This document shows positions 5,991-22,936 of a stretch of DNA of 64,000 nt, piece by piece. The position numbers were made by a program, and so were the translations under genes. Numbering within the stretch: position 1 is the stretch's first letter; each line of letters begins with the position of its first letter. The stretch is from Candidatus Iainarchaeum sp. (lineage in GTDB: Archaea; Iainarchaeota; Iainarchaeia; Iainarchaeales; JAZDDZ01): positions 13,864 through 77,863 of the forward strand of contig JAZDDZ010000049.1 of the NCBI GenBank assembly GCA_043809245.1. Reading direction: 5' to 3'. The notes below the pieces were generated by a model. That model was given only the letters and a program-made list of their open reading frames with translations. It was not told the origin of the DNA and did not search any database.

Positions 5991-6296
5991 CTAGCCGCGC
6001 TTCTCTTCCTTTATGGCTTTCCCTTCCTTTGTATAAATTCGTCTCACAGCCATTCCTTTTTCAGGGTGCTTTGGGTGCATGCTTTCAGCCCTGAATGCAA
6101 CAAGGCCGCTTCCAGGGAATTGCCGATAGGTTATTCTTCCAACCTTGACTCCTTCAGGCGAAGAAGCAATTTTTTTAATGAAACGACTGGACAAACGGCG
6201 CTTAACCCACATGAAAAAATCAAGCGCAAACCAATATTTATTGCTTTTGCCACAGGCATATCTTATATTATGCCTGAACGCGGAAACCCTGTTCAC
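5991..6296 (-). CDS. Possible ribosomal protein L35Ae (weak); a basic 74-101 aa protein
   Basis: GRITYRQFPGSGLVAFRAE...KGMAVRRIY resembles the L35Ae core (GK[IV]xRxHGxxGxVRAxF...G). The real start may be the internal Met at 6212. It overlaps the compositionally poor 5' part of the plus-strand ORF 5988..6869. Confidence 0.4.
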   Translation of the reverse strand: MNRVSAFRHNIRYACGKSNKYWFALDFFMWVKRRLSSRFIKKIASSPEGVKVGRITYRQFPGSGLVAFRAESMHPKHPEKGMAVRRIYTKEGKAIKEEKRG

Positions 6297-6926: not shown

Positions 6927-6951
6927 TTGGACCCAGCGGGAATTGAACCCG
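6927..6951. repeat. attL-like 25-bp direct repeat TTGGACCCAGCGGGAATTGAACCCG. It is a duplicate of the 3' end (T-arm + acceptor) of tRNA-Ala at 22864..22888.
   Basis: An exact 25/25 match was read in both places. It defines the left boundary of the integrated element. Confidence 0.8.
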
Positions 6952-7033
6952 GTCATTTTCGGTAGTTTGTAGGCAGTTCACGGGTTCGGTTTTTTGAGAT
7001 GTTTTAGTTATTTTATTCATTTTTACCTACCTC

Positions 7034-7864
7034 CTAATTTTCTTTTACTTTTTTATTTCCTTCATCATCCCAGCATTTGTCCCTAGTTTTTTCCAGTTCA
7101 AAGTGGAGTTCTACTAATGATTTGTTAAATCCAGGTTTTTTAACAATGAAATCAGCGAAAATTGGTACGAATGCCCCCAAGGTTTTGTCCATCAAGTCTA
7201 ATGTAAAATATATACAATCAGCAGCCATTTCTTTGTCGAATGTGTTAGTTCGCAATCCTGTTAAGGAAGGATGAGAGTAACTACCTGAGAGCCCATGGTA
7301 AACCGATTCAAAATTCTTGCCTATGTCTACTTCATAGAGTTCTTTGATTATGTATGAGTGCCAAAATTGTTTTTCCTTTAGCTTCCCGGTTTTCATGAAC
7401 ACATTTATTTCCTCTTTCGAGTATTTGTTTTTTCTTAACCATTCTTCAACTTTACCTGGATTTTTTCTTAGGTATTCCATTGTTACAAATACTTCATAAG
7501 CAAGCCGCAGATTGTTGTAACAAGCTCCGTAGTGTGCATCGCATAACGCACGATATATTGCTAAAAAAAGGTCGGCATTTTTACTTAACAAAAGTTGGCT
7601 TGTCTGTAAAAGAAGATTTTCCTTAAATATTTCAATATCTAAGCTAGGGAGATGCGTAGCCTGGTAAATATGTGCCAACGCCTTCTTGAACAAAAACGAT
7701 TCTTTAGGGAAGGTATTTTCAAATGTTGTCTGTTCCGTCTCTAACCTTCGTAAAATACTTTGGAAATTTTTATTGAAGTTAAGGGGGCTTAGGCCATCCC
7801 AGTATGTGGCGAGTAGAACATTAGATTCTTCTTTAGAGCACTGCTTTGAATTCCCGTTCTTCAT
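7034..7864 (-). CDS. Hypothetical protein (276 aa), third gene of a tight three-gene operon at the left end of the element
   Basis: Long ORF 4 nt after the upstream gene. No recognized motif. Confidence 0.4.
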   Translation of the reverse strand: MKNGNSKQCSKEESNVLLATYWDGLSPLNFNKNFQSILRRLETEQTTFENTFPKESFLFKKALAHIYQATHLPSLDIEIFKENLLLQTSQLLLSKNADLFLAIYRALCDAHYGACYNNLRLAYEVFVTMEYLRKNPGKVEEWLRKNKYSKEEINVFMKTGKLKEKQFWHSYIIKELYEVDIGKNFESVYHGLSGSYSHPSLTGLRTNTFDKEMAADCIYFTLDLMDKTLGAFVPIFADFIVKKPGFNKSLVELHFELEKTRDKCWDDEGNKKVKEN

Positions 7865-7868
7865 CTTG

Positions 7869-8612
7869 TTACCTTCTCTTTTTTTCTATCAAATAGTTTA
7901 CATTAAAATTGATGAATGAGCAGACGTTCTCTTTTGTTTCTCTGATAAAACTATCTAATGGTTTTCCGTCAATTTGCATCGGTATGCAATCTATTCTTGT
8001 TGGCGAGCCAACTTCTTTTTCCATGCAGCTCCAAAAAGCAGTCGCTTTTACTTCATATTTGTTCATTATGAAGTAATGCACTATGTCAACTCTTTTTTTG
8101 TTGAGTCCTTCAACCCAGGTTTGCCATTGTTCAATATAATATTTCTTAAGTTCTGGTTCTTGTTTTTCGAGCCTTTCAGATATAGCATTATATTTCTCAG
8201 TGTTCTCAATTAGTGCCTTCATTAGTTTTTGTAATGATTCAACCTCATCGCCAAGTAATACTTCCAATGAAAGTTTTATCTGATATCGAACAGCTCTAAT
8301 GCAAGTTTCAATAAAAGAATCAAACGAAAAAGCGAAGTCGGTGAATACTCTCACATGGCCTGAATGTACTACTTTGTGTTGTACTGCGGTGCTAAACTTA
8401 AAATCGTCTTTATTTTTTTGTAATCTACGCATCATGTCGTTAATTGCATTTTCTTTAATCTTTTCAAAAACAAAGTTATGGGTTGCTAAGCATTGCTTTT
8501 CCAAAAATTTTGTTTTTTCCAGCAGAAAATTAATGTCATCTACTTTATAGGAATATTCCTGCGTGCCTAACCTTGCCTTTAGTTCGGGGAAAAAGATTGT
8601 TTCTTCTGTCAT
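7869..8612 (-). CDS. Hypothetical protein (247 aa), middle gene of the three-gene operon
   Basis: Its start overlaps the stop of the upstream gene by 4 nt (ATGA). No recognized motif. Confidence 0.4.
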   Translation of the reverse strand: MTEETIFFPELKARLGTQEYSYKVDDINFLLEKTKFLEKQCLATHNFVFEKIKENAINDMMRRLQKNKDDFKFSTAVQHKVVHSGHVRVFTDFAFSFDSFIETCIRAVRYQIKLSLEVLLGDEVESLQKLMKALIENTEKYNAISERLEKQEPELKKYYIEQWQTWVEGLNKKRVDIVHYFIMNKYEVKATAFWSCMEKEVGSPTRIDCIPMQIDGKPLDSFIRETKENVCSFINFNVNYLIEKKRR

Positions 8613-9202
8613 CCTTTGCTCACCACTGCTTTGATATGGATTCCAACAACGTCTCTTAATTTGAAATAAGTATTTACTTCCATTGCTTTCCTGAGCAGTG
8701 CCTTAATTTTCTTGAACTTTTTTTCATCATCTTCTTCGTGCACACCAAGCGGATAACTTTCCATAATAAGCTGGTAAAACATGTTCCTTATGGTCTTCTG
8801 TACTAAAACTTCATGCCTTTTTGTATAGTGTCTAATATATGCTTCGAATTCTTCGGCTTCTTTGTCTGAAAATTCTTCCATCAGCAGTTTCCATTTTCCC
8901 CATATCTTAATATAGCGAAATTCCTCAAACAAAAAGTGCGAAAAGTATACTGCAAGTCGGCTATAGTCTATATAGTAGCGATTTTCTTTTTGCCCCGGCA
9001 CTTTTTCAATGCTTACAATGCCACGACTTTCAAGATTGTTCATTTTTCTTAGAATATTTTTCCTTTCAACAGTTTTTTTACTTTTTAACAAATCCGAAGT
9101 TGTAATTTGTTTTTTCTCGAGGACTGTTTTAAACAGGATTGCGTATTCTGGGTTGTCATTCAGATTTGGCCTTGTCATATCTTCCCACTTATAATAAGAC
9201 AA
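8609..9202 (-). CDS. Hypothetical protein with an N-terminal winged-HTH-like segment (197 aa), first gene of the operon
   Basis: ITTSDLLKSKKTVERKNILRKMNNLESRGIVSIEKV resembles a wHTH recognition helix plus wing. Confidence 0.4.
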   Translation of the reverse strand: MSYYKWEDMTRPNLNDNPEYAILFKTVLEKKQITTSDLLKSKKTVERKNILRKMNNLESRGIVSIEKVPGQKENRYYIDYSRLAVYFSHFLFEEFRYIKIWGKWKLLMEEFSDKEAEEFEAYIRHYTKRHEVLVQKTIRNMFYQLIMESYPLGVHEEDDEKKFKKIKALLRKAMEVNTYFKLRDVVGIHIKAVVSKG

Positions 9203-9524
9203 AGTGAGAACCTATTAAAAAAGGTATCCTTTGATTCATACTTTTCTATGGACATAACAACAATAAAGATTCATAGAGAGACCTTGGGACTTCTAAAAGA
9301 ACATAAACCTGTCGGGTGCAGTTATGACTATTTTTTGAAGCAGTTGCTGCGTCTTTGTGAAAAGAAAGGTGATTAGGTGCTCATTCAAGACCATGAAAAG
9401 ACTTCATTCAAATGTTGTCGCTGTGGCAAAAAAGCAGTCTTGGACTTTGACCTGAATTTCTATTGCAAGTGCTGTGTTCTGCAATTGCTTTCCGCTATTA
9501 TCCACGACTTGCAGAGGCTGGAGC

Positions 9525-10388
9525 ATGAAAAATGATACATTTTTGCCCGAACAAAAAAGCCGAACAGCCCCAATACGCAGAGCAGACTTGCGAGTCCTTT
9601 TTACTATCAGAAAGGGAATAAATTCGGTAACGATGATTTCAAAGGAGATTGGGCGAGGCAAGTCTTCCGTGTCTGAACGGCTGGGAAAGCTTGTTAAGCA
9701 GGAGCTCGTAAAAAAGAAAGATTCGCTCTTTTACCTTACTACACCCGGCAAAATGGCTTGTTCGGCTTTGGCAGGACTACCTTGCAATAAACCTATTGTT
9801 TTCCGTTTGCATAAGTATACTTCCTCTGCTCCTTTTTTGAGGAAGTCTGCTGAATTGGAGGCACAGTTAGCTTCAGATAAGCGATTCTCAAGGAATTATT
9901 GTTTTGATAGAGCTAAGTTTAATGCAAAGTACGATTCTGTTACCGTTCAGTTTCATCCAAATTCTGTTAGCTTTGTATTGCCCCCTGTTTATTCCCCTGA
10001 TTTAATTATCGCTGAAGCTTATGCTGTTAGGTTGTTGAATGCGGTTATTGATTTGCTTGAGCAGGATTTTCCCGGGACTAAGATTGGAGTTCCTAAGGTA
10101 ACTTCACATCTTGATGATAACCATATTGCTGTTGTTAATCATCCTCTTTCTATTGAATTTGCCAAGTTTCGTGAGAATTTTGGTGAGACATACTGCTTCA
10201 AAGGGGATAAAATCGAAGTTGATTTTTCCGATGGCTCTGTTGAATTGGAGTGTGTTGACAAGCTCAATGCGAAGGAGGATTGCTATAAATTGGCAAGATT
10301 TTGTAATCTTCTAGTAACTGGGGATAATTTCAAGAAGTTTGAGGCATTGCTCCAGAACCTTGATTCTTTTGGTAATATTGAGAAGTAA
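9525..10388 (+). CDS. wHTH-containing protein (about 287 aa) upstream of the terminase-like gene
   Basis: ADLRVLFTIRKGINSVTMISKEIGRGKSSVSERLGKLVKQELV is MarR/ArsR-like. The track ORF starts at 9474; the internal Met at 9525 is more likely. Confidence 0.4.
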   Translation: MKNDTFLPEQKSRTAPIRRADLRVLFTIRKGINSVTMISKEIGRGKSSVSERLGKLVKQELVKKKDSLFYLTTPGKMACSALAGLPCNKPIVFRLHKYTSSAPFLRKSAELEAQLASDKRFSRNYCFDRAKFNAKYDSVTVQFHPNSVSFVLPPVYSPDLIIAEAYAVRLLNAVIDLLEQDFPGTKIGVPKVTSHLDDNHIAVVNHPLSIEFAKFRENFGETYCFKGDKIEVDFSDGSVELECVDKLNAKEDCYKLARFCNLLVTGDNFKKFEALLQNLDSFGNIEK

Positions 10389-10397
10389 TAGGTAACA

Positions 10398-11948
10398 GTG
10401 ATTTTCGTGGACTGGACTCCTGAGCGAATTGACAAATTCTCGGAGCTGTTGGCCGAGGGCAAGGATTTGAGTTACGTTGCTGATTATTTTGGCGTAAGTT
10501 ATGTTGCTGCAAAGCAAGCCAAGTACTTCCATAGCTTGAAGGATAGGTTAAAGCCTGGAAGAAAGAATGTCAAATTGAAACAGGCCAAGGAGCTTAATAA
10601 GTGTGATTTGGCTACTCGAATTCGCGTGCTCCGTGGCGAGGAAGTGCGAAAAGAAGAGGCGGTTTTTGGTTTTTCAGATGACCAGTTAAAGGAATGGTTT
10701 GACGGAGCAAGTGGAGTAGCTAAATTCTGTCAGGACGTTCTTGGATTAGAATTGCAGCCTTATCAGCTTGAAATGATTGAATTAATGCTTTCCCATAAGC
10801 GTTGTTGTTTTGTTCTTGGAAGGCAGTCGGGGAAGGATTTCACTATTTCGTGTTTTGTTTTGTGGTTGGCTTTAGTGCATTCCAATCAAAGAATTTTATT
10901 GGTTTCCGCGGCTCAAAGGCAGAGCGATTTGTTGTTTAACCGAATAATGCAGTTTATTGCCAATTCAACCGAGTTGTTTGACTCCGTGCAAAAATCAAAC
11001 ATGGAAGTAATCCAGTTCACTAATGCATCAGAGGTTTATTCTCTTCCAAGCACTACCTTTATTCGCGGTTTTACAGAGGTAACCCATGTTTTTCTCAACG
11101 AAGCAGCTCATGGAATCACAGAGGAAGCGCTTCAGGCCGTTGAACCAATGCTTGCAATCAAGCACGGCGCGCTGATAATGATGAGCTCTCCTTTGGGCAC
11201 TTCTGGCGTGCTCTGGGATGCCTTCAATAACCCAATGTACGCAAAATTAAAGCTCCCCAGCTCCGTTAACAAGTATATTTCTAAAGAATGGCTTGAAGAG
11301 CAAAGAAAAACCATGTCATCAATTGCCTACGAATGCGAAATAGAGGCTAATTTCTCCCAAGCAATCGACTCTTTCTTTAAAATTGAAACAATCAAAGCTT
11401 GCTCTCAAGAGTACGCACTACGAAGCACTTGCCCAAAAGAAGACGGCAAAAACTATTTCGCCGGCATTGACTGGGGTCGAATACAAGATTCAAGCGCTAT
11501 AACCATTATTTCTAAATACCAAGAAGACCAGTTAAAAGTTGAAGCAATAATTGAAATGTTCAACACTCCGTTTAAAGCCCAAGAAGAAAGAATCAAATCA
11601 CTCTACAAAGAATGGGGCTTGGAAAGAATAGTATCCGAATACGCCGGTTTAAGCATTAATTCCTGTGAAAACCTAAAAACTGCTGGCCTAAGTGTAGAAT
11701 TCTTCAAACCCACAATTGATTCCAAAGCCGAAGCCTACAATTACTTACTCAACAAAATGGAAAACGGGGCAATAACAATCCCCCTGCACGACAAACTCCA
11801 ATACGAGTTAAGAGTATTCAAATTCCAGTTAACCATGCAAGGAAAAATGAAACTCCACCACACAGAAGGCGGGTCAGACGACTTCGTAGACTCCTTATGC
11901 TATGCTGTTTGGGCAACTAAATCAAAATTTATTTGTGCACTGGTGTGA
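10398..11948 (+). CDS. Terminase large subunit-like protein (N-terminal HTH, P-loop ATPase, C-terminal RNase-H-like nuclease)
   Basis: Walker A VLGRQSGKDFT. Walker B/catalytic HVFLNEAAH. The C-terminal acidic cluster AGIDWGRIQDSSAITI plus SDDFVDS is typical of the TerL nuclease. Confidence 0.6.
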   Translation: MIFVDWTPERIDKFSELLAEGKDLSYVADYFGVSYVAAKQAKYFHSLKDRLKPGRKNVKLKQAKELNKCDLATRIRVLRGEEVRKEEAVFGFSDDQLKEWFDGASGVAKFCQDVLGLELQPYQLEMIELMLSHKRCCFVLGRQSGKDFTISCFVLWLALVHSNQRILLVSAAQRQSDLLFNRIMQFIANSTELFDSVQKSNMEVIQFTNASEVYSLPSTTFIRGFTEVTHVFLNEAAHGITEEALQAVEPMLAIKHGALIMMSSPLGTSGVLWDAFNNPMYAKLKLPSSVNKYISKEWLEEQRKTMSSIAYECEIEANFSQAIDSFFKIETIKACSQEYALRSTCPKEDGKNYFAGIDWGRIQDSSAITIISKYQEDQLKVEAIIEMFNTPFKAQEERIKSLYKEWGLERIVSEYAGLSINSCENLKTAGLSVEFFKPTIDSKAEAYNYLLNKMENGAITIPLHDKLQYELRVFKFQLTMQGKMKLHHTEGGSDDFVDSLCYAVWATKSKFICALV

Positions 11949-11951
11949 GGA

Positions 11952-12302
11952 ATGCAAGATTTCAAGCGATTAGAAGTTTGGAAGAGGGCCCATAATTTTG
12001 TTTTGGATATTTATAAAGCCACTGAATTTTTTCCAAAAAGCGAAAAATTTGGCATGATTTCACAAATTAGGCGAGCCTCTGCTTCAATTGTTGCAAACAT
12101 TTGTGAAGGCTGCGGCCGGGAAAGCAAAAGAGAATTTCAGAGATTTCTTTTCATTTCACTTGGATCTGCAAAAGAAACAGAAGGATTTCTACTATTAGCT
12201 GAAGATTTAGGTTATTGCAAAGAAAAAAGGTTGATTGAAGAATTACAAATTATAAGCAGAATGCTTAGCGGACTCATTAAGAGTCTTAACCAAAACAGTT
12301 AA
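11952..12302 (+). CDS. Four-helix-bundle protein (TIGR02436 family, formerly called 23S rRNA intervening-sequence protein)
   Basis: NICEG...SKREFQRFLFISLGSAKE..EGFLLLAEDLGY matches this family closely. Confidence 0.7.
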   Translation: MQDFKRLEVWKRAHNFVLDIYKATEFFPKSEKFGMISQIRRASASIVANICEGCGRESKREFQRFLFISLGSAKETEGFLLLAEDLGYCKEKRLIEELQIISRMLSGLIKSLNQNS

Positions 12303-12392
12303 AGAAAATTGCACGCGATTGAAATGAGCGGGGATCCTTCTTGTTAAGCCAGTAGAAGGCCGCTTATTAAAAACGTCTAAAAAGATGCCAGT

Positions 12393-14993
12393 TCATTTAT
12401 AGCCTAACTTTTTCTTTACCTTTGCTAAATTACCCCAATATGAAAAGCAGGCGGATACTAACGAACCAAAACCATTTTTGATTAATTTTTTAGCAGTTAA
12501 TCTTCCCTTGATTTCTTTACTTGCTTTTTTAAATTCTTTCTTTACGTTCGCCCATTTTTTCCAATAATTGGCCTCTTTATGTAACACTCCTTTTTTACCA
12601 AATCGGCCATATTTCAAACCACACATTTTTGCAACAACCCCAAAACCACCAAACTTCAATATTGCGGACTCTAAATCTTGCTGTCCAGATTTTCTTAATT
12701 CCCTGGATGTCGGCATAATCCTGGCTTTTGCAATTTTTTTTATTTCCTTAATTAGTTCCTTCTTTGTCCAAATTCTCCGTACTATTGGGCAACCTATTAT
12801 CCTTCTTGCCTCATTAACGCTGCCAAAAAACCGATAGATCTTTGGGTAGAGTCCGCTTTTACCTGACTTCCTTGCTTCTTCTTGTGTTATAAAATGGCCT
12901 TGCTTGTCGTAAAACGCCTTTAATTCTGCGACAACTTCTTCCTTTGCCCAATGCTTTCTTATAATTGGATAACCCATTTTTTCTCGTACTGTATTAATGC
13001 TGCCATAATGTTTTACTGCATGAGCGTATAACTTATATTTGCCTAATTTTTTGAACTCAGTTTCTTTTGGAAAATGTTTTATTTCCTTTATAATTTTATT
13101 GAAATCTCTCTCAATATTTTCCCAAATAGCATAACTACCTCTCTTTGTGTAATATGTGATGGGATAACCGCACTTATCTGAAAAATAAAATGGCCCTCCA
13201 TTTCTATCAATAGCAACTATAAGGTCAAACCGTTTAGCTTCTTCCAAGTGCTTTCTTGATGGGAAACGCCCTAACCTTTTACAAATCGGGGTTAGCCCCT
13301 CAATTATCTCCTGCTCTGTCCACCCATCAGATTTTATTAAGTGCTTTTTCAGGAATGCCATTTCTTCAAGGAATGATTTTTTCTTATACAATTTTTCGTT
13401 GTGTTTTACTCTCTTACCCGCTTGATAGAAATCTAATTCCAATGGCTCAAGTAAACCAGTTTCTTTATGTATTTTACCTTTATGAATGTTGGATAGTTTT
13501 TTTTCTTTCTCGACCTTTTCAACAAAGTCTTGAATTATTAATAGGTGCCCGAATGCATTAATTACTTTTTTAATCTTGGTTACAGTTCCAACGAAATCTA
13601 AAACCCGCAAATAATTTTTTCCAGAAGCTTTTCTTAATCCCCGACCCAATTGCTGGAAAAAAATTGTGGGGCTATAAGTTGTCCGTAAGAAAACAACCAA
13701 GTTGGCACCAGGAATGTCAATGCCTTCATTGAATAAATCGACCACTAAAATTGTTCTTATTTTTCCCGTTTTAAACCTGTGAAAAATTATCTCTCGTTTT
13801 TGATCATCCATATTGGAATGATAAACTTCCGCGTCTGAAAACAAACCAATTGATTTAACGGAGTTAATATACTTTATTGTTGGGCAAAAAACAATTGTTT
13901 TTGGGTTATCAATTTTGTTCATCTCCCCGTAAATTATTTTTTCAATATCTTCGTCTTTTGTGGGAATAAAAAATTGTTTATTCAACTGCTCCACGGAAAG
14001 CTTTTTGTTTATCGTTTTGAGTTTAGCATAGTCGATGTTGTCAGAAAAAACAGAAAATTTTACAGGAGACAAATAACCTCTAATTAATGATTCAGCTAAA
14101 CCCAAATCAACTAATGGTTTTCCGAAAATACTTTCAATGAATTCATTGTCTTTTCGTGCAGCTCTAAGCGGAGTTGCAGTAATTCCGAGAATAAATTTCG
14201 GCTTGAAATAGGATAATATGTTAGCATAAGTTTGCGCAGGAGAATGGTGTGCTTCATCGATTATGATATAATCAAAATAATCTTTCGAGATTTTTTTGTA
14301 ATGTCTTTTCATTGTCTGGAATGTTGAGAAAACAATATCCTCTTTCCGGAACTTTTTTCCCCCAAAATAAACGCCGAATTTGAACTTTCCTTTTTTCTCA
14401 TTTAGTATGAAGTTAAATTTTTCAGCATTATCAACAAGAATGTCAGTTCGGTGAACCAAAAACAAGGCCTTTTGTCCTTTCTTAATTTGGCTTTTTAAAT
14501 CCCAGGCCGCAACCAATGTTTTACCTAAACCTGTTGCCAAAACCAATAATGCTGCTTTGTTGCCTTTTTCTCTGTGTTCAATAAGGCAGTTTAAAATCTT
14601 TTGTTGATATGGAAACGGCCTATACTTTACAGATTTGGATTTAAATTTTTTCCATTCTTTTAATTCTTCCAAGCCGATTAAATCGATAGGTTTATCGAAT
14701 TTATTTTTTGCCTTGTAAACGGCTTTGGAAAAAACAGTGTCACAGACCAACATTCCTCTATCTGCTTTATAAAAATCCATTGCAGCTGAAACATCCTTTA
14801 ACGCGCTATATCCCACAGTTCCTTTGTATTTTTTGCATTGAACAACATATTCTAAACCATCCTTTAAAGCTAAAATATCGGCACCATAATCGCTTGAAGC
14901 CTTTGTAACCTTAACGTGGTAAAAGCCCTGAGCCTTCAGCTTCTCAGCTACATACTTTTCGAAATCAAAACCAGCCTTCTGTGCTGTCGTCAT
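12393..14993 (-). CDS. Single-polypeptide Mrr-like PD-(D/E)xK nuclease + SF2 (DEAH) helicase + four or five C-terminal homing-endonuclease-associated (HNH_repeat-like) repeats
   Basis: The N-terminus DYGADILALKDGLEYVVQCKKY is the Mrr_cat motif. Helicase motifs I, II and VI are ATGLGKT, IIIDEAHH and QQLGRGLR. The C-terminal 300 aa consist of about 55-aa repeats with W...fGS...A...G periodicity. Confidence 0.75.
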   Translation of the reverse strand: MTTAQKAGFDFEKYVAEKLKAQGFYHVKVTKASSDYGADILALKDGLEYVVQCKKYKGTVGYSALKDVSAAMDFYKADRGMLVCDTVFSKAVYKAKNKFDKPIDLIGLEELKEWKKFKSKSVKYRPFPYQQKILNCLIEHREKGNKAALLVLATGLGKTLVAAWDLKSQIKKGQKALFLVHRTDILVDNAEKFNFILNEKKGKFKFGVYFGGKKFRKEDIVFSTFQTMKRHYKKISKDYFDYIIIDEAHHSPAQTYANILSYFKPKFILGITATPLRAARKDNEFIESIFGKPLVDLGLAESLIRGYLSPVKFSVFSDNIDYAKLKTINKKLSVEQLNKQFFIPTKDEDIEKIIYGEMNKIDNPKTIVFCPTIKYINSVKSIGLFSDAEVYHSNMDDQKREIIFHRFKTGKIRTILVVDLFNEGIDIPGANLVVFLRTTYSPTIFFQQLGRGLRKASGKNYLRVLDFVGTVTKIKKVINAFGHLLIIQDFVEKVEKEKKLSNIHKGKIHKETGLLEPLELDFYQAGKRVKHNEKLYKKKSFLEEMAFLKKHLIKSDGWTEQEIIEGLTPICKRLGRFPSRKHLEEAKRFDLIVAIDRNGGPFYFSDKCGYPITYYTKRGSYAIWENIERDFNKIIKEIKHFPKETEFKKLGKYKLYAHAVKHYGSINTVREKMGYPIIRKHWAKEEVVAELKAFYDKQGHFITQEEARKSGKSGLYPKIYRFFGSVNEARRIIGCPIVRRIWTKKELIKEIKKIAKARIMPTSRELRKSGQQDLESAILKFGGFGVVAKMCGLKYGRFGKKGVLHKEANYWKKWANVKKEFKKASKEIKGRLTAKKLIKNGFGSLVSACFSYWGNLAKVKKKLGYK

Positions 14994-15148
14994 CTTAAAG
15001 CAAATTTCATCAAAAACGAGTTTAAAATGATTTGTTATTGACTGTTCTCCCGCCTTAAAAAAGCCTAAATACGAGCCTCAATTCATAGATGGCAAAGAGC
15101 GGAAAGATAATTAAATTCAACAAAAAGCAGCAGCATTATTATTTTTGT

Positions 15149-15913
15149 TTAATTTTGCCTGCTGCCTAAATTTTTTCTAAGGCTATCTTCTATTATTTTT
15201 TTAGAAACGCGTTTTCTCATCTCAACAGTCAGGCGTTCCGAGTCGACGCCATTATCACTCATGAACTCCAAAATGCCCTTGGAAGTAAATTCCCCATATT
15301 TATTAATGAGCTCTGACTCGGAGATACCTTGAGCACATTCAATCAATTTACTTTCTTTTAATCTGCCTAAAAAACCAACAAGGACTTTGCTTGAATTCAT
15401 ATATTGGTTTATAGGAATAAGCTGATCCCAGAAAAATAAGGCGGAAAATTTTTTATCGCTAAAATATTCTTCATCAAGACCTTTCAATGCAGTACACCAT
15501 CTGCTTTTTTTAAAATCTGGTTCGCATGGCGTAAGTGGCCACGCTTTACATAACAAAGGCCGGTATTTATAGATTCCACACTTATTATTTGACAAAGCAG
15601 GACATGGCTGACCTAAAAGCTTCCAAAGTTGAACAATTCTTGTTTTACTTTTTAAGTCAAAAAGGTATACTTCTGGGATTAATTCGGCTTTAATGGAATT
15701 TTCGTTTAATCCTTTTTTTACGGTTTCTCTTTCAAAATCAGTCAGTATAGTGCCAGGCTTAATGGCTGGCGGCATATAAACTGGGCCATACTGAAATTTT
15801 TTTATTTTTTCATCATCTTCTTGTTCGGTTTTCAAAATATCTTCGTTGCAACAGCGCCCGCATTTTACACAGGAAAATCGCGCTAAATTCTTGGCCATAT
15901 AAAATACTCGCAA
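15149..15913 (-). CDS. YkgJ/UPF0153 family Fe-S/Zn-cluster protein (CxxCxxCC)
   Basis: The N-terminus FSCVKCGRCCNE is the family signature. Additional conserved Cys residues are present. Confidence 0.55.
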   Translation of the reverse strand: MRVFYMAKNLARFSCVKCGRCCNEDILKTEQEDDEKIKKFQYGPVYMPPAIKPGTILTDFERETVKKGLNENSIKAELIPEVYLFDLKSKTRIVQLWKLLGQPCPALSNNKCGIYKYRPLLCKAWPLTPCEPDFKKSRWCTALKGLDEEYFSDKKFSALFFWDQLIPINQYMNSSKVLVGFLGRLKESKLIECAQGISESELINKYGEFTSKGILEFMSDNGVDSERLTVEMRKRVSKKIIEDSLRKNLGSRQN

Positions 15914-15950
15914 GAAAAAGGTTAAAATCTGTTGTACAATTAATTCACAG

Positions 15951-17027
15951 TTATCTTAATGTGACTGTTTTGCTTGTTGAAGCCACTGCTTGAATTGCTA
16001 CGCCAGATTTTAAATTAACCTTCAAAGTATACGTTCCGGGCGAGATTTCTGTTTTGTTATCATACCCAATATAAGTTGCCTTGTAAATTCCATCATAACC
16101 TACTGGAATTTCAGATAAAGCATAGCTTTGTTCATCCACATCTCTGCTCAGTACTTGGTCGCCTTCATATATATAAAAATCAAACATAGGATTTTGAAGA
16201 ATGGCTTCTCCGTTATTTTTTATTCCAATCTTTACGTAATCTAAAAAGCATTCATTGTTGTAACATGTCGGGTTATAATCTACTATGCTCAATTCTATCT
16301 GGAATCCTTCTTTTACCAATTCTAAGGCTTTTTCTTCTTTTGGAATATCCATCTCTAAGTAGCTCTGCCTTTCCAAAATATCATATTCGAACTTAGAGTT
16401 GATTTGCTTAATATCCTCTTCAGAAAAACCTTTAAGGCGCTCAAGTTCTTGTTTATCCAAATTTATAATTTGCTGATACAATTCTATAAATTTTTCTTCA
16501 TCATTTTCTACTGCGGTTTTTTCAACCAACGCGTTTCTATTTACATTCCATTCTCTTCTATCGCGCCTATACTTAACATAGGTTTTCTCTAAATTAACAT
16601 CAAAGCTACCTTCTAATTCCGAAACAGCTCTTTCCATCTGCTCAATCTTAGTCAGTATGAAATCATAGTCAATTAAAGCGCTCTCTTTATCGTATTCCGC
16701 AGATTCTGCGTCTAAAAACTTTATAATATCCTTGTACTGCTTGGTTTCCTCCAACTTCTGCTTAGCACAAGTATTTACTTTTTGTCCTCCTGATTCTAAT
16801 TCTTTACAATCAAAAAATTGCGGGCATGCAACATCCAAACAACAATTTTCGGCAATCTCCCCGGGCTCTGCAATTCCATTACCGCAAATAGCGTTCGCGC
16901 TTAGGTCTGATGAAGGCAAACTATTATCGCTGTTAGACAATGCAGCCGGCGAGCCTACATCTTGTGTGCACCCGCTGAGAATCAACAATAAAATAAATGC
17001 CGGAACAACTAATTTCAGGCCAAGCAT
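15951..17027 (-). CDS. Secreted lipoprotein, function unknown
   Basis: Signal peptide with a lipobox-like LLILSGCTQD. Acidic and coiled-coil-rich. Confidence 0.5.
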   Translation of the reverse strand: MLGLKLVVPAFILLLILSGCTQDVGSPAALSNSDNSLPSSDLSANAICGNGIAEPGEIAENCCLDVACPQFFDCKELESGGQKVNTCAKQKLEETKQYKDIIKFLDAESAEYDKESALIDYDFILTKIEQMERAVSELEGSFDVNLEKTYVKYRRDRREWNVNRNALVEKTAVENDEEKFIELYQQIINLDKQELERLKGFSEEDIKQINSKFEYDILERQSYLEMDIPKEEKALELVKEGFQIELSIVDYNPTCYNNECFLDYVKIGIKNNGEAILQNPMFDFYIYEGDQVLSRDVDEQSYALSEIPVGYDGIYKATYIGYDNKTEISPGTYTLKVNLKSGVAIQAVASTSKTVTLR

Positions 17028-17087
17028 AATAGCAAGTTATTGCTACGAAAATCATATAAATATGTTATGAGCGTGTTATGATAGTAT

Positions 17088-17360
17088 TTGAATGGGCCTG
17101 CAGCCTCTATTTTAATGTACGAAGAAATAGCTGGCCTCAAACGGAGCAAGACAAAAATAGACATTCTCAAAAGGCTTGCATCAAAGCCCATGACGCCAAC
17201 GGAGCTATCAAAAGAGCTTAAGCTCCACCAGTCAAGCATCTCACGGAGCATTAAACAGCTTGAACAGCAAAAACTAGTGGAATGCTTAACGCCAAAACAA
17301 TACAACTATAGGCATTATCAGGCAACAGAGAAAGGAAAAAAAATTCTGAAACAAATTTAA
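17088..17360 (+). CDS. Small winged-helix transcriptional regulator (ArsR/MarR-like)
   Basis: KTKIDILKRLASKPMTPTELSKELKLHQSSISRSIKQLEQQKLV is a classic wHTH. Confidence 0.55.
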   Translation: MNGPAASILMYEEIAGLKRSKTKIDILKRLASKPMTPTELSKELKLHQSSISRSIKQLEQQKLVECLTPKQYNYRHYQATEKGKKILKQI

Positions 17361-17364
17361 TTTG

Positions 17365-19008
17365 TTATCCTTTTAATCTTTCTCCACAAGAAGTGCAGAA
17401 ATTTACTGTTGCTTTTTGTTGCGAGTTACATTTCGGGCAAATTATAGCGTTAACATTTGTTGGCGCTTGTTGTGGTTTCAAATAAAAGAAATAAGCTGCT
17501 ACTCCCACTAATCCGACTATAATTAAAACAATAATAATCGGCAATGCGGAAGATAGCGAGTTCTCAGAGCTTAGAACCGCCGATCCAGTATTAGGCAGTG
17601 CTGAAGCTTCAGATCCTTCAGCAATAACTTTTACCGGTTCACAGCTATCCTTGCATTGACCCACATAACTTCCTTCTGCTTTACAGCATTCTTGCCCAGA
17701 TGCACAATCTTGTGCTTTATAATTTCTGCCTTCAGAGCAACAACTGCTATAAGGACAATCCTGCAAGGTATAACGTGCCTTACAGCCTTCAGTTCTATTG
17801 CAAACCTCGTTAGGCCCACATTCTGAATCTGAACAACATAACACTTTATTTGTTGATTTAGTACATGAGCCATTTTTACTGGGCCAAATTTTATGAGTTA
17901 AATCACAACTCCAGATTGTTTCAGTATTATTTAGACATGTCACTTGTCCTGGAACTTGACAATCTATATCTGTGTCACAAGGTTTTGAATCAGTACATGA
18001 AAAAGTATTTGGATCGCATAATAATGCTCCTGTGGGGTCTTTCCACTTACAATCTTCATTATAACAGCATTCAACAACACTTTTGACGCTTGTGGGAATT
18101 AAATAGCACGCCCCCGACACAGTATCTATTTTAGAAAAGGACATCAAATTCCTATTCCCTGGAGAGCCGCCCATACAATAGCCATTTGGCATATTATCTT
18201 TATCATAAATAATTCCTATATCCGGTATTATTTTCCAGCCAGATAAAAAGGTATAAGTTTCACCAGCATGTAAATTTGTTGGATTATTCGCGAATGAATA
18301 TGAAATCTGATTTATTGATTTATACTGGCCACTTAGACTTTTTGTAGTGGTAGAAGTCTCAAAATAAGTAGTAGGTAAATTTTCTGAAACTGCTTTTTGC
18401 GGATAATATTTTGAAACAAAATCGGTTGGGACACAACCCACAGTACCTGGCATCATAACGAAATTTGTAGTATTGTCTGGATTTTCATACAAATAGATTT
18501 TTCTGGTATCAACTTTTATTTTAGATCCTGATCTGAGTGGGTGTTCATCTCCCAGAACTCCAATGCAAGTTCCGACTATTTTCAAAGTTTTCGGGTATCC
18601 AAAGGTTATTGGGAAGCCGCCAATCTGTTTTTCCTTTAAATCTTTGTAGTATCTTCTCCATACAATATTATCTCCGTCTAAAATTCTTAAGTCAAGCCGC
18701 CATAAAAAATCTTCACAAAATTTATTATTGGGATCATTCAAAGAACGACCTTCTGGATCTGTTATTGATGAGCGGTCTGATATATTGCATTGTGACACGC
18801 AAGGAAGGTCCACTACAGATGAAGTTGCACCAGTTTGAATTTCATATTCTGGATAGTCGTATTGTTCAGTATTCGCAGAATCACACAATACCACCCCGAA
18901 GACTGGTGCAGCGATTGAACAGTGCTCATTCTCTGCTAAAACTAAAAAATTGAATATCAAAATAAAAATAAGCAAAATCAATAATTTTTTCATATTTTTT
19001 CCCCGCAT
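17365..19008 (-). CDS. Cys-rich secreted protein with a C-terminal TM anchor and cytoplasmic double zinc ribbon
   Basis: Signal peptide. More than 40 Cys in the ectodomain. A C-terminal TM helix is followed by CPKCNSQQKATVNFCTSCGERL. Confidence 0.5.
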   Translation of the reverse strand: MRGKNMKKLLILLIFILIFNFLVLAENEHCSIAAPVFGVVLCDSANTEQYDYPEYEIQTGATSSVVDLPCVSQCNISDRSSITDPEGRSLNDPNNKFCEDFLWRLDLRILDGDNIVWRRYYKDLKEKQIGGFPITFGYPKTLKIVGTCIGVLGDEHPLRSGSKIKVDTRKIYLYENPDNTTNFVMMPGTVGCVPTDFVSKYYPQKAVSENLPTTYFETSTTTKSLSGQYKSINQISYSFANNPTNLHAGETYTFLSGWKIIPDIGIIYDKDNMPNGYCMGGSPGNRNLMSFSKIDTVSGACYLIPTSVKSVVECCYNEDCKWKDPTGALLCDPNTFSCTDSKPCDTDIDCQVPGQVTCLNNTETIWSCDLTHKIWPSKNGSCTKSTNKVLCCSDSECGPNEVCNRTEGCKARYTLQDCPYSSCCSEGRNYKAQDCASGQECCKAEGSYVGQCKDSCEPVKVIAEGSEASALPNTGSAVLSSENSLSSALPIIIVLIIVGLVGVAAYFFYLKPQQAPTNVNAIICPKCNSQQKATVNFCTSCGERLKG

Positions 19009-19274
19009 TTCTCGCAGAATTTTGAATTCTGGCTATTTTTTGCTCCGCATGCTCTACAAAATATTGCTTTTTCATTTGGTTGAGTAGCCTGAATTTGTTG
19101 GCTTGGTTTTGAATCAGCTTTAATCATAAACAAGCCAATAACAAATAGAATCGCAAATACTATTGTTGCAATGAGTGAAACGTCTGTGAAAAATTTTATT
19201 AAAGTTAAAACGTTTTTTAAAGAAGCCGAGCTGTCTTTAACCATGGCCATAATTCGCCAATACTGCCGCCCCAT
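18990..19274 (-). CDS. Small membrane protein with a C-terminal zinc ribbon
   Basis: One TM helix, then CRACGAKNSQNSKFCEKCGEKI. Same tail architecture as the neighbouring large protein. Confidence 0.4.
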   Translation of the reverse strand: MGRQYWRIMAMVKDSSASLKNVLTLIKFFTDVSLIATIVFAILFVIGLFMIKADSKPSQQIQATQPNEKAIFCRACGAKNSQNSKFCEKCGEKI

Positions 19275-19504
19275 CCCGCGGCCTCTCCAATCACTGGAAC
19301 CCAGTTAAGGCCTTTAACTGTTTGCAAAAAAGAAGTAGCAGAAGTATACCAATCCGAATGCGATATTGAATAGATTTGCTCATTAGCCTGGTACGCGCTG
19401 TTAATAGTTCCGGAGAGAGGAGTTAGATAAATAAAGAAGGTTAAGAAAATGATTAACATGGCTAAGGAAAAGCCCGCTAAGAACGCCCCACCCACTTTTC
19501 CCAT
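19217..19504 (-). CDS. Small membrane protein
   Basis: Two hydrophobic helices. Weak call; overlaps the previous ORF by about 58 nt. Confidence 0.3.
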   Translation of the reverse strand: MGKVGGAFLAGFSLAMLIIFLTFFIYLTPLSGTINSAYQANEQIYSISHSDWYTSATSFLQTVKGLNWVPVIGEAAGWGGSIGELWPWLKTARLL

Positions 19505-19564
19505 AGTACTATTTTTGGCCTTGAAATGCCTTTAAAATCTATCGTAATGGCAAAATGGCTTTAG

Positions 19565-20224
19565 TTGAAAAAGGCTTTGTTTGAGTACTATTTAATGGAT
19601 AACAACTATCAGAACCGAACGCGGGTCAATGATATTCAAGCTAGAATAAGTCACGAGATATACTTAGAGGTAAGTGAAAAAATTAAAGAAGGAGATATTT
19701 CTAAAGCAAAAGAACTTTTTTTAGAAAATTTTAGACTAATTATCCATGAGATAAGTCAATTTGGCGGTATTAAAGAAAGAAAGCATTTATTTGGAAGAGT
19801 AGCTCAAGGAATTAATTTTTTAAAGGACACGTATTTTTTTGACATTAAATATGGAGAAATTAATGATGCAAAGAAAGAATTATTTACAATATTTAATGAA
19901 CATTTGGTAGTGGTAATTGCGCTAATATTAAAAGATGAGGAAGATTTTGGGGCAATAGAATATATTGACAGAATGATTCACCCATTATTTTATATTGAAA
20001 AGAGAGATGCTCCAGATTATGCGGGCTTTACTGTATCCCGAGTTGATGAAAAATATTTTTTCGATGTTTTCAGATTTCGTTTTAAAAATGCGTCAAAAGA
20101 TTATGACGAACTAAAGTTTGAAATTGAAAAATACAAAAACTGGGTTGAAGAAAAAAACAAAAAGTTTGCTGATTTACTTAAAAATCGTGGTATAAATGCC
20201 GAGTATAAAAAAGCGAAAGAATAA
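19565..20224 (+). CDS. Hypothetical protein
   Basis: ORF only. AT-rich; no motif recognized. Confidence 0.35.
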   Translation: MKKALFEYYLMDNNYQNRTRVNDIQARISHEIYLEVSEKIKEGDISKAKELFLENFRLIIHEISQFGGIKERKHLFGRVAQGINFLKDTYFFDIKYGEINDAKKELFTIFNEHLVVVIALILKDEEDFGAIEYIDRMIHPLFYIEKRDAPDYAGFTVSRVDEKYFFDVFRFRFKNASKDYDELKFEIEKYKNWVEEKNKKFADLLKNRGINAEYKKAKE

Positions 20225-20843
20225 ACAAAGGTATCTAGAGCTAAAAAAGCTTGACGATTATTTAGCCTCTTGGATAGAACAAAAAAATAAAGAATTCAGA
20301 GAGTTCACAGACCAGAACGTAGCGTTGATGCGAGAAGAAAACATTCGCTTAAGAAAAGATGCTGCAGAAGTTTACCAAAAAGCTGAAAAGAAACTTGACG
20401 AACAGCAAATAAGACTAGTAGAAGTATTGGGAATATTTACTGCAATACTTGCTTTTGTTATAACATTTGTCCAAATCTCTGTAAGTTTTTCGGCTATAGA
20501 AGCATTTGGCTTAATTATTGCCATTGGCATCATCTTGATAATATTTATATTTTTGTTAAAGAAAATAATAGAACCTAAAGCGCAAAATGAGAAAATGATT
20601 AGTATCCCGAAAGAAAAAAAATTCGATTGGCCCCGAGAAATAAGGCGCATTTTAAATCCTTTTCTTACAGTATTTATTTCTATATCTATATCGATTTTGG
20701 TTTATTCAGAAGTAATAATAAGAAATGAAATAGATGCTAACTTTTGGATTTTACTTTTTTTCGGTACTTTAGCAATTTTTATTTTAATTAATTCTCCGAT
20801 TTTCTATTTAATATCTTGGCAAAACAAAGGGCTACTCAAATGA
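20196..20843 (+). CDS. Hypothetical membrane protein
   Basis: Coiled-coil N-terminus and three C-terminal TM helices. Confidence 0.35.
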   Translation: MPSIKKRKNKQRYLELKKLDDYLASWIEQKNKEFREFTDQNVALMREENIRLRKDAAEVYQKAEKKLDEQQIRLVEVLGIFTAILAFVITFVQISVSFSAIEAFGLIIAIGIILIIFIFLLKKIIEPKAQNEKMISIPKEKKFDWPREIRRILNPFLTVFISISISILVYSEVIIRNEIDANFWILLFFGTLAIFILINSPIFYLISWQNKGLLK

Positions 20844-20849
20844 ACTGAT

Positions 20850-22001
20850 CTAAGTTGGAGTTTGAGGAGTTTTTTTATTAATGGCTTCATACAATTTGCT
20901 AAACTTTTTTTCTTGCCAGTCATAAAATATTTTTCCGAAAACACGCACCAGAATAGCGTGTAAAATTATACCTATAAAAAAAGCAAGGGCAAAAGCAAAA
21001 ATTAATTGCATAGAAAGTAATATCTGAACCGCCATTGAATTAGCATAAATGCTAGGCAGGTTCTGCACAATGGCGTTTATGGAATACTGTATTAATAAAA
21101 TATAGAATATTACAAGAAACAAAATTGTGGAAATTGCCCACACAATCCAGGAAGTCCAGTGCCTTTGAAAATGAATAAGCGGGACCATTCTTTCTAAAGG
21201 CCAAAATTTTTCATTAGGAATATTTTTGATTATTTTTACTTCTTCAATAGCGTTTAGCTGGTTTTTTAAAGCTGCTTTAATTATCTCCTTGTCATCTTTC
21301 CAATCTGCAAGTATTTTTTTCATAGTTTCAAGATTTATTAGGTTTGGGAAATAGGAAATAAGTCGAATAGTATCTTTCTTACTTAACTTTAGTTTATATA
21401 ATTCATCTATTGCATCCGGGTTTAATTCTTGTTGAGTAAGCAGAGAATCAATTAGCACGGGGCTGTTCCAACTATTTTTAACTAATAGAGATATTGTTTT
21501 AGTTAGCTCTATACCAATAATATTGTAACTATCTATTTCTTGTATTATACTTGTTTGGGCCTCTTTTTTTATTTCCGCAAAAATTTTTTCCTTCCTTAAT
21601 TTCCTAGCTATTGCGCCCCAATTCTCAATTGCTATATCGATGACCGTTAAAACTGCAAGCACTGCAACAATAATAACAAAAATAGTATTCTGTAGGTCTC
21701 CGCTTTTCCAAAGCACCATTAAAAAGGCAATTGCTAAAATACTTTTCCAAGCAGTATCCGAAATTTTCAAAAAACGTGTCAAGACTGATCGTAGTAATTC
21801 AGTAATTGTTTCTAAAAAATCGAAAAATTTTGTGATTGGTCGATTATCCTCGGGTCTTCTGAAAATTCTGCTGCCGATATCAACACTAACGTCAGGCAAC
21901 GTAAATAAGTCATTAGGCATTAATCTTGTAGGTATTTTCTCTTTTCCCATAGCTATATATCGCATAATAATCTTTTTATAGTGCAAAGATAGCTGCTTCA
22001 C
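20850..22001 (-). CDS. Hypothetical polytopic membrane protein
   Basis: Several TM helices at both ends; no motif recognized. Confidence 0.4.
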   Translation of the reverse strand: MKQLSLHYKKIIMRYIAMGKEKIPTRLMPNDLFTLPDVSVDIGSRIFRRPEDNRPITKFFDFLETITELLRSVLTRFLKISDTAWKSILAIAFLMVLWKSGDLQNTIFVIIVAVLAVLTVIDIAIENWGAIARKLRKEKIFAEIKKEAQTSIIQEIDSYNIIGIELTKTISLLVKNSWNSPVLIDSLLTQQELNPDAIDELYKLKLSKKDTIRLISYFPNLINLETMKKILADWKDDKEIIKAALKNQLNAIEEVKIIKNIPNEKFWPLERMVPLIHFQRHWTSWIVWAISTILFLVIFYILLIQYSINAIVQNLPSIYANSMAVQILLSMQLIFAFALAFFIGIILHAILVRVFGKIFYDWQEKKFSKLYEAINKKTPQTPT

Positions 22002-22864
22002 ATCTTCTCAATCAACTCCTTTGCAATCGATTCATACGATTCTGAGTTGAAGACCTTGTTAACCAACTCGAGCTGCTCTTGGTGTGAGAAGAAAATGTAT
22101 TGGTCAGTTGTGTCTTCTTTTTTGTGCCTGGCCAGAACTTTGACTAATTCTTTTTGCTTGCAGAATTGATATAGCCTTGTCAGATAGGTTCGCCTAAAGG
22201 AGTGAGTTGATAGCTTGAATAGCTTCTTTTTGCATGGGTTTTCGTGGCTTGGAGTGAAAGCCTCTGCGTAAATGTTTGTTAGGCCGGCTTTCTGCCTGCA
22301 TTTGCCGAAAAAGTTTCTCAAGTGGTCGACTGAGATTCTTTCTCTTTTCTGGAATGGATTCAACGAAAAGAAAAGAAAGCCATTGGCCTGCTTTATCTCT
22401 TCTTTATAGCGCTCCGCATACATTTGAATGCACTCTAATGCTATTTGAGGCATTGGTTGGTCGGATGGCAGTTCTGCTTTCTCTGTGAGAAGAGAGATTA
22501 CGCCTCTTTCAAAGTCACAGTCTTGCAGCCTTATTTTCACTACTTCTCCGACTCTGAAGCCGCCTGTGAGCATTAAGAACATTGCAAGGCCTTGCTTTGC
22601 TCTTTTAGCGGGAATCGCTGAAAACAGTTTCATTAAGTCAAGGTCAGAGAATACTCTGTAGACGTTTCTGCTTTTAGGCGAAGAACGCTTTTTAATAGAC
22701 GGAAATTTTTCCTTTAACACTTCGCCAGTTATTTTTCGCAGCATTTTCAAATCAGATGCTGCAAGCTGTGTCAGGAATTCGCTCCATTGTTTTTCGAAGC
22801 CAACAATCGACCTTGGCTTCCTTCTGCTAACCGAAAACCGATTGCCTGCTTCCAGACCCGAAAT
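21998..22864 (-). CDS. Tyrosine recombinase/integrase (XerC/D-phage integrase family)
   Basis: The catalytic-domain motifs are LMLTGGFRVGEV (Arg I), HSFRRTYLTRL (His-x-x-Arg) and LARHKKEDTTDQYI (His/Tyr region). The track ORF runs to 22897 but its first 11 codons overlap the tRNA, so the true start is internal. Confidence 0.8.
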   Translation of the reverse strand: MSGLEAGNRFSVSRRKPRSIVGFEKQWSEFLTQLAASDLKMLRKITGEVLKEKFPSIKKRSSPKSRNVYRVFSDLDLMKLFSAIPAKRAKQGLAMFLMLTGGFRVGEVVKIRLQDCDFERGVISLLTEKAELPSDQPMPQIALECIQMYAERYKEEIKQANGFLFFSLNPFQKRERISVDHLRNFFGKCRQKAGLTNIYAEAFTPSHENPCKKKLFKLSTHSFRRTYLTRLYQFCKQKELVKVLARHKKEDTTDQYIFFSHQEQLELVNKVFNSESYESIAKELIEKM

Positions 22865-22936
22865 TGGACCCAGCGGGAATTGAACCCGCGACCTCATCCT
22901 TGCGAAGGATGCGTCCTACCACTAGACTATGGGCCC
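22865..22936 (-). tRNA. tRNA-Ala: tRNA-Ala(CGC)
   Basis: Manual fold: acceptor GGGCCCA/TGGGTCC with a G3:U70 pair, anticodon loop TTCGCAA, T-loop TTCAATT. 72 nt; no encoded CCA. Confidence 0.85.

Follow-up and report, generated by a model that had tools for sequence, protein, structure and literature searches.

We analysed a stretch of 64,000 nucleotides (nt), hereafter the window, from contig JAZDDZ010000049.1 (positions 13,864 to 77,863, forward strand) of assembly GCA_043809245.1, a metagenome-assembled genome (MAG) of Candidatus Diapherotrites (DPANN archaea). Near its left end lies an element of 15.9 kb (~6952-22888) that is integrated at a tRNA-Ala gene and has a G+C content of ~0.35, as against ~0.44 in the flanks. 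Our subject is a group of three genes, gA, gB and gC, which according to the list of open reading frames (ORFs) are co-directional on the minus strand and span 7034-9202, just inside the left boundary of this element (sizes in amino acids, aa):

8609-9178, minus strand: gA (MFH1256977.1), 189-aa protein with a winged helix and, C-terminally, a conserved domain

7869-8612, minus strand: gB (MFH1256976.1), 247-aa orphan, predicted to be helical, variable cargo

7034-7864, minus strand: gC (MFH1256975.1), 276-aa protein, all-alpha by prediction, with a marginal match to DUF5677 (PF18928), variable cargo

That three genes are encoded here on the minus strand had been proposed from a sequence-only reading of the stretch, and this is borne out: with a stop probability of 7.9% per codon on that strand, frames of 189, 247 and 276 codons would arise by chance with probabilities of 1e-7 to 1e-10, and base composition varies with codon position in gA, gB and gC alike. 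Of the sizes then given, 247 and 276 aa stand. The third, 197 aa, corresponds to the longest frame of gA (8609-9202, from a TTG at 9202), but the gene almost certainly begins at ATG 9178 and encodes 189 aa, because this is the start that aligns with that of a homolog in the related element L007 and the one called by NCBI (MFH1256977.1). Stop/start overlaps had likewise been reported throughout; an ATGA at 8609-8612 does join the gA stop to the gB start, whereas 4 nt lie between gB and gC (TAA-caag-ATG), which do not overlap. Purine motifs of Shine-Dalgarno type precede the starts of gB and gC, as well as that of the integrase exon Int(N) described below. In the integrated state the three genes form a short-spaced, probably co-transcribed unit. 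All of them (locus tags V1494_06835 to V1494_06845) bear a hypothetical-protein annotation, and each makes up a singleton cluster.

The boundaries of the element are marked by two copies of an attachment site (att), and its integrase gene is divided between them:

6927-6951, no strand: integrase-distal att copy, a perfect 25-nt direct repeat with 22864-22888

6952-7020, minus strand: Int(N), the N-terminal exon of the integrase, starting at ATG 7020, encoding MNKITKTSQKTEPVNCLQTTEND and comprising ~23 codons before att

21998-22888, minus strand: Int(C), the tyrosine integrase body (Pfam Phage_integrase, PHROG integrase), which includes the att copy 22864-22888 and abuts the intact tRNA-Ala gene

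The 25-nt repeat duplicates the 3' end of tRNA-Ala(cgc) (22865-22936). The gC gene ends 82 nt from the distal copy, inside the element, so the trio does lie close within the left repeat, as had been read; it does not hold the last coding sequence before it, however, since Int(N) intervenes. The ATG of this exon is found 13 nt past the gC stop, with a GGAGG motif upstream, and its frame reads through att in the frame of the integrase body at the other att copy, where the ORF in the integrated state extends over 21998-22897. When circular junctions were built in silico, one open integrase frame ran across att in three of three elements, i.e., the window element and its relatives L005 (att of 31 nt at a tRNA-Ser gene, 6246-6276 and 18909-18939) and L007 (att of 21 nt, 7085-7105 and 15800-15820), and their exon peptides are alike (...KTEPVNCLQTT in the window, ...KSEPTNYPLQTS in L005 and ...IPQTTNYLLTTT in L007). 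This arrangement is of the SSV type, with attP inside int, and excision and recombination are predicted to restore the gene. It shares with the SSV-type (type I) archaeal integrases the position of att within the frame and the separation of the N-terminal exon from the body upon integration, but the N-terminal fragment comprises only ~23 codons before att here, and the rest of the element, with its large terminase (TerL) and winged helix-turn-helix (wHTH) proteins, is unlike fuselloviruses. Since attP lies inside int, the gene order of the circular form would be gA, cargo, int, and it is the cut made by integration, just downstream of the integrase start, that places the trio next to att.

The wHTH previously read in gA is supported by several weak matches, all of which fall on residues ~19-84; the winged-helix region itself spans residues ~23-80 in the numbering of the 197-aa frame. 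They comprise the NCBIfam model of Sta1 (E 4.9e-5, 23.4 bits, curated cut-off 80), Lrs14 (16.5 bits, cut-off 90), TrmB (14.4 bits, cut-off 25.6) and, as the only hit in PADLOC, the C-terminal wHTH of SoFic (E 2e-4), whose Fic domain is not covered. These independent hits support a wHTH fold, but not membership of a single family. L007 carries a full-length homolog of gA (8192-8785, 40% identity, E 2e-40) in the same position and orientation and with a conserved upstream region, and 9 nt downstream of it a DUF4238 gene (333 aa) replaces gB and gC. We therefore consider gA a candidate backbone regulator of the archaeal winged-helix type. The first genes of the corresponding region in the relatives L002, L003, L004 and L005 were also compared with gA; homology was unsupported (hhalign E 0.06-0.5), and they are positional counterparts only, among which weak matches to ArsR-type HTH domains were seen in the L004 and L005 proteins only. 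Upstream of gA lies a region that it shares with the backbone genes transcribed in the opposite direction:

9179-9250, no strand: control region from which gA and the rightward operon diverge, with an AT-rich, TATA-like block that is conserved in the alignment with L007

The block might serve as a TATA element and the region as an operator. By eye, an imperfect inverted repeat can be made out next to the gA start (9179-9215 of the window, TTCCCACTT-N11-AAGTGAGAA), and a 19-nt imperfect palindrome occupies the equivalent place in L007 (8784-8823); the inverted repeat may be the operator of gA.

Sister elements were found through searches of genome and metagenome collections with TerL. The close ones, with TerL proteins 69-77% identical to that of the window, are L002 (identical to L006), L003, L004, L005 (identical to L008) and L007, while more distant elements (TerL identity of 45-56%) differ in layout. 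The backbone proteins of related elements are 67-78% identical. TerL and a small protein resembling 23S-rRNA-IVP/Avd (see below) are common to the close sisters; the 304-aa wHTH protein encoded upstream of TerL also occurs in L002, L003, L006 and L007, the Zn-finger protein in L002, L003 and L006, and the integrase is common to the window, L003 and L005 (55% identical in the latter). Neither gB nor gC is present in any of the five close sisters (no blastp match at E<=1e-4, phmmer --max scores below 7 bits). The slot that they fill in the window, defined as the stretch from the first leftward gene to Int(N) or att, contains:

Window: gB-gC

L007: a DUF4238 gene, 333 aa

L003: a DUF4238 gene, ending ~70 nt from an att copy

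L002/L006: a gene for a 118-aa membrane protein

L005/L008: nothing, over ~270 nt

The DUF4238 proteins of the slot match PADLOC DUF4238-Pers (E 1e-13 in L007 and 6e-9 in L003) and Pfam DUF4238 (3e-36), and in E. coli strong resistance to T7 was conferred by one DUF4238 protein alone, encoded in a P2 prophage hotspot (PMC9122126). Judged by its gene content, the slot qualifies as a variable cargo hotspot of the integrated element, with a known defence family among its contents.

In contrast to gC, gB is an orphan for which the earlier statement that the trio lacks recognizable domains holds. A word-index search of 5.8 billion proteins returned only the query, and no family was hit in Pfam, PHROGs, PADLOC or NCBIfam. 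Searches of plasmids and phages with gB and gC (tblastn) gave nothing but tape-measure noise at E 0.4, and nothing came of scanning viral contigs with gB, the gA alignment or TerL. Two candidate relationships were rejected on comparison, namely that gB is a paralog of gC, and that it is related to a 248-aa protein with an RNSFFH motif encoded at 7080-7826 of the distant element L011. No match emerged from sequence and profile searches of the PDB. Both gB and gC are predicted to be soluble (grand average of hydropathy -0.46).

For gC the claim of missing domains fails, if narrowly: the protein passes the Pfam gathering cut-off of DUF5677 (PF18928) with 27.5 against 27.1 bits (E 3.9e-6), residues 92-176 aligning to profile positions 7-127 of 166, and the precomputed NCBI/Pfam annotation also lists PF18928. 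An exhaustive phmmer search against 1.84 billion representatives yielded only three credible relatives (P0004-P0006; 237-256 aa, E 1e-6 to 6e-5, 26-33% identity), each of which weakly matches DUF5677 itself (20-35 bits); a further match to a 2474-aa repetitive protein was judged spurious. Word-index searches of the 5.8 billion proteins, with gC and with the alignment of its family, returned only the query and one relative on a short contig. In the four-sequence alignment N96, R120, E124, Y131, P136, L192 and H198 are kept, giving the motifs LRxxxE and LSxxxH. The invariant Arg, Glu and His (R120, E124, H198) suggest a catalytic or ligand site, and do not match the Rx4-6H pattern of HEPN domains. 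Either gB or gC might still be a HEPN-domain RNase, a class marked by this motif within a four-helix bundle. The AlphaFold2 model of gC built on this alignment is all-alpha (predicted local distance difference test, pLDDT, 65; predicted template modelling score 0.64) and resembles generic helical bundles only. No gA- or gB-like neighbors of the gC relatives were found in the loci L001, L021, L022 and L023. P0005 has a gene for a 104-aa membrane protein upstream and a HicA gene nearby, and the 200 nt upstream of P0004 contain no gene. P0006 (L023, 6001-6771) is unusual in its location: the DUF5677-like gene stands alone directly behind the one for ribosomal protein L6, where an archaeal operon of ribosomal proteins ends.

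The reading that we prefer, with middling confidence, is that the region represents a leftward operon in which a backbone regulator, gA, is followed by variable two-gene accessory cargo, gB-gC, possibly devoted to exclusion or defence. gA would be a winged-helix regulator transcribed divergently from the operon for the small protein, the Zn-finger protein, the 304-aa wHTH protein and TerL; gB and gC would occupy the variable slot between gA and the integrase start codon, and integration would cut the operon right after the 23-codon integrase exon. Expressed in that state, gB and gC would benefit the element or its host, most likely by excluding competing viruses or elements or by defending against them, with gC, a DUF5677-type helical protein with the invariant Arg120, Glu124 and His198, as the candidate effector and gB as its partner or sensor. 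They are plausible as exclusion or defence cargo because of where they lie, which is an argument of guilt by location only. The sequence-only reading had called this a position for accessory or defence cargo; the variability of the slot and the DUF4238 genes of two sisters agree with it, for gB and gC and not for gA, which belongs to the backbone. A more specific version, in which gB and gC would be two proteins of an as yet undescribed DPANN module for excluding viruses or elements, housed in the regulator-to-integrase hotspot of a new family of small elements with a terminase, without recognizable capsid genes and possibly satellites of tailed archaeal viruses, is tentative, and we consider it doubtful as a whole.

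Several points weigh against the cargo reading, beginning with the purely positional nature of the case for defence. Across PADLOC (E<=0.1), PHROGs and NCBIfam, gB and gC have zero family matches, and the single-sequence structure model of gB is unusable (pLDDT 41). The gC relatives do not lie in consistently defence-like surroundings. Homology to gA could not be demonstrated for the genes that come first in the slots of L002 and L003, and the hotspot was delineated on a small sample of six distinct elements only. Finally, in the only relevant paper that we found, DUF5677 is enriched beside serine recombinases in Bacillota; the representative tested was not among the genes protecting Enterococcus (PMC12632615).

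Alternatively, gB and gC might serve the life cycle of the element, as an excision directionality factor, in replication or copy number control, or in the manipulation of a helper virus, and be element-specific replacements of analogous genes in the sisters. Accessory genes of excision and recombination often sit directly upstream of the integrase, as gB and gC do with respect to the integrase start in the circular form, and most genes of the element are unannotated, so that such functions must be encoded somewhere. We nevertheless regard this as unlikely. In L005 the slot is empty although the backbone is the same and the integrase 55% identical, and other sisters (L007, L003) have DUF4238 there; the content of the slot is therefore dispensable for the backbone. 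With 247 and 276 aa, both proteins also far exceed typical directionality factors. Nothing was found to support the possibility, raised earlier, that the trio encodes ordinary proteins of the virion or of replication; PHROGs returned only noise at E>0.01.

An addiction module of toxin-antitoxin type, which would stabilize the integrated element without being antiviral as such, would fit a pair of genes 4 nt apart on a mobile element, and a PemK gene in the sister L002 and the HicA toxin gene near one gC relative point in the same direction. However, gB and gC match no toxin or antitoxin family, both far exceed typical type II partners in size, and the relatives of gC occur singly, without a partner, which leaves this explanation quite unlikely.

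The proposal made from the sequence that all three genes are components of one undescribed, self-contained (defence) system has fared worse, and we now judge it very unlikely. Tight spacing, shared direction, the ATGA overlap of gA and gB and the cargo position speak for it. The three genes do not travel together, though: the gA homolog of L007 is followed by different genes, the gC relatives stand alone without gA or gB, gB has no relatives, and a second trio turned up neither among 5.8 billion clustered proteins and 1.84 billion representatives nor in collections of genomes, metagenomes, viruses, phages and plasmids. That the frames are decaying or non-functional remnants of a defective element, as singletons without close relatives beside an integrase disrupted by integration might suggest, is highly improbable given their intact length in AT-rich DNA (with the chance probabilities stated above), the compositional bias by codon position in all three genes, the Shine-Dalgarno-like motif before each start and the retention by gC of the invariant residues of its family.

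Divergent from gA, the window element carries the following backbone genes:

9251-11948, plus strand: rightward backbone operon (small protein, Zn-finger protein, wHTH protein, TerL)

9251-9376, plus strand: small 42-aa protein

9377-9535, plus strand: Zn-finger protein

9474-10388, plus strand: 304-aa wHTH protein, directly upstream of TerL

10398-11948, plus strand: large terminase, TerL (PHROG 2.7e-31)

TerL is 29% identical to that of Halogranum tailed virus 1, and the conserved 304-aa wHTH protein could be the small terminase. Directly after TerL (11952-12302, plus strand) a four-helix-bundle protein of the 23S-rRNA-IVP/Avd-like family is encoded (Pfam 1e-35). Going by its distribution it is a backbone gene, because it is conserved in L002, L003, L004, L005 and L007 (in L003 as a 56-aa ORF, of which only 48 residues align). 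Further along (12393-14993, minus strand) the element encodes an 866-aa Mrr-ResIII/SF2 helicase-HNH-associated repeat protein, a type IV methyl-directed restriction enzyme according to PADLOC (3e-51), which is probably further defence cargo of the element. It also encodes a CxxCxxCC protein and zinc-ribbon proteins, whereas no capsid or portal gene was recognized by Pfam or PHROGs among its ORFs of at least 90 aa. The module from the wHTH protein to TerL (9001-12000) has a G+C content of 0.39-0.41, and the trio (7001-9000) together with most other genes of the element (12001-22000) one of 0.31-0.38, which is consistent with the acquisition of cargo from lower-G+C sources.

In keeping with the cargo reading, genes of defence or addiction type recur in this family of elements, with AbiTii in L005, PemK in L002 and the Mrr-helicase in the window. 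In the distant element L011 (TerL identity 47%) a gene for a ThsB-type TIR protein overlaps one for a QueC-like PP-loop ATPase (12233-13403), and the two may form a two-gene defence pair. Just outside the att site of L007, beside a degenerate att copy, lies a SoFic-like Fic gene. Inside its att bounds (11949-13981) the same element encodes a class IV aminotransferase and a pyridoxal phosphate-dependent Orn/DAP/Arg decarboxylase, so that a mobile element holds metabolic genes here in a genome-reduced DPANN host. At one boundary of L003 there are tandem partial copies of the 3' end of tRNA-Arg (5433, 6214, 6726 and 14474-14519), which suggest repeated integrations or decayed neighboring elements. 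The contig of L003 is labelled as a Chloroflexi bacterium MAG, and it is probably misbinned because it carries the same archaeal element backbone. The extents of the elements are:

Window: 6952-22888

L003: 6726-14519

L007: 7106-15820

L005: 6277-18939

We would describe the family as 7.8-16 kb tRNA-integrating elements of Diapherotrites/Iainarchaeota MAGs with a split integrase, in which TerL is the only recognizable virion-related gene. The smallest leave little room for capsid or portal genes, and the elements might represent either cryptic proviruses or satellites of tailed archaeal viruses. The family is arguably a more interesting lead than the trio itself.

Should gB and gC indeed act in exclusion or defence, an archaeal-specific system would be gained from the DPANN archaea, in which, to our knowledge, defence has hardly been explored and is not yet open to study in culture. 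At present they are best regarded as an uncharacterized cargo cassette with a candidate function only, and such cassettes are common on mobile elements. What can be reused is the cargo slot of Diapherotrites elements between the wHTH regulator and the split integrase start, which could be mined for candidate systems as the P2/P4 hotspots were.

These variable anti-phage hotspots, known from P2-like prophages and P4-like satellites (Rousset et al., 2022; PMC9122126), are a close parallel in organization, with a fixed slot between backbone genes whose content varies among close relatives, and they share with the sister slots of L007 and L003 the DUF4238 family. They differ from our case in that the host here is an archaeon (DPANN), that the slot is bounded by a wHTH regulator gene on one side and the beginning of a split integrase gene on the other, and that gB-gC match no known defence family. 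With DUF5677 (PF18928), gC and its three nearest relatives share a match to the model and have the motifs LRxxxE and LSxxxH in common; the match of gC is marginal, confined to profile positions 7-127 of 166. A third comparison is offered by the cI-rexA-rexB region of lambda. The analogy is one of layout only, without sequence similarity, and RexB is a membrane protein, as against the predicted soluble gB and gC. What the two regions share is a gene for a DNA-binding regulator, a putative one in the case of gA, with a pair of accessory genes behind it in the same orientation and the operon for packaging pointing away from them; like rexA and rexB, the gB-gC pair would be expressed from the integrated element.

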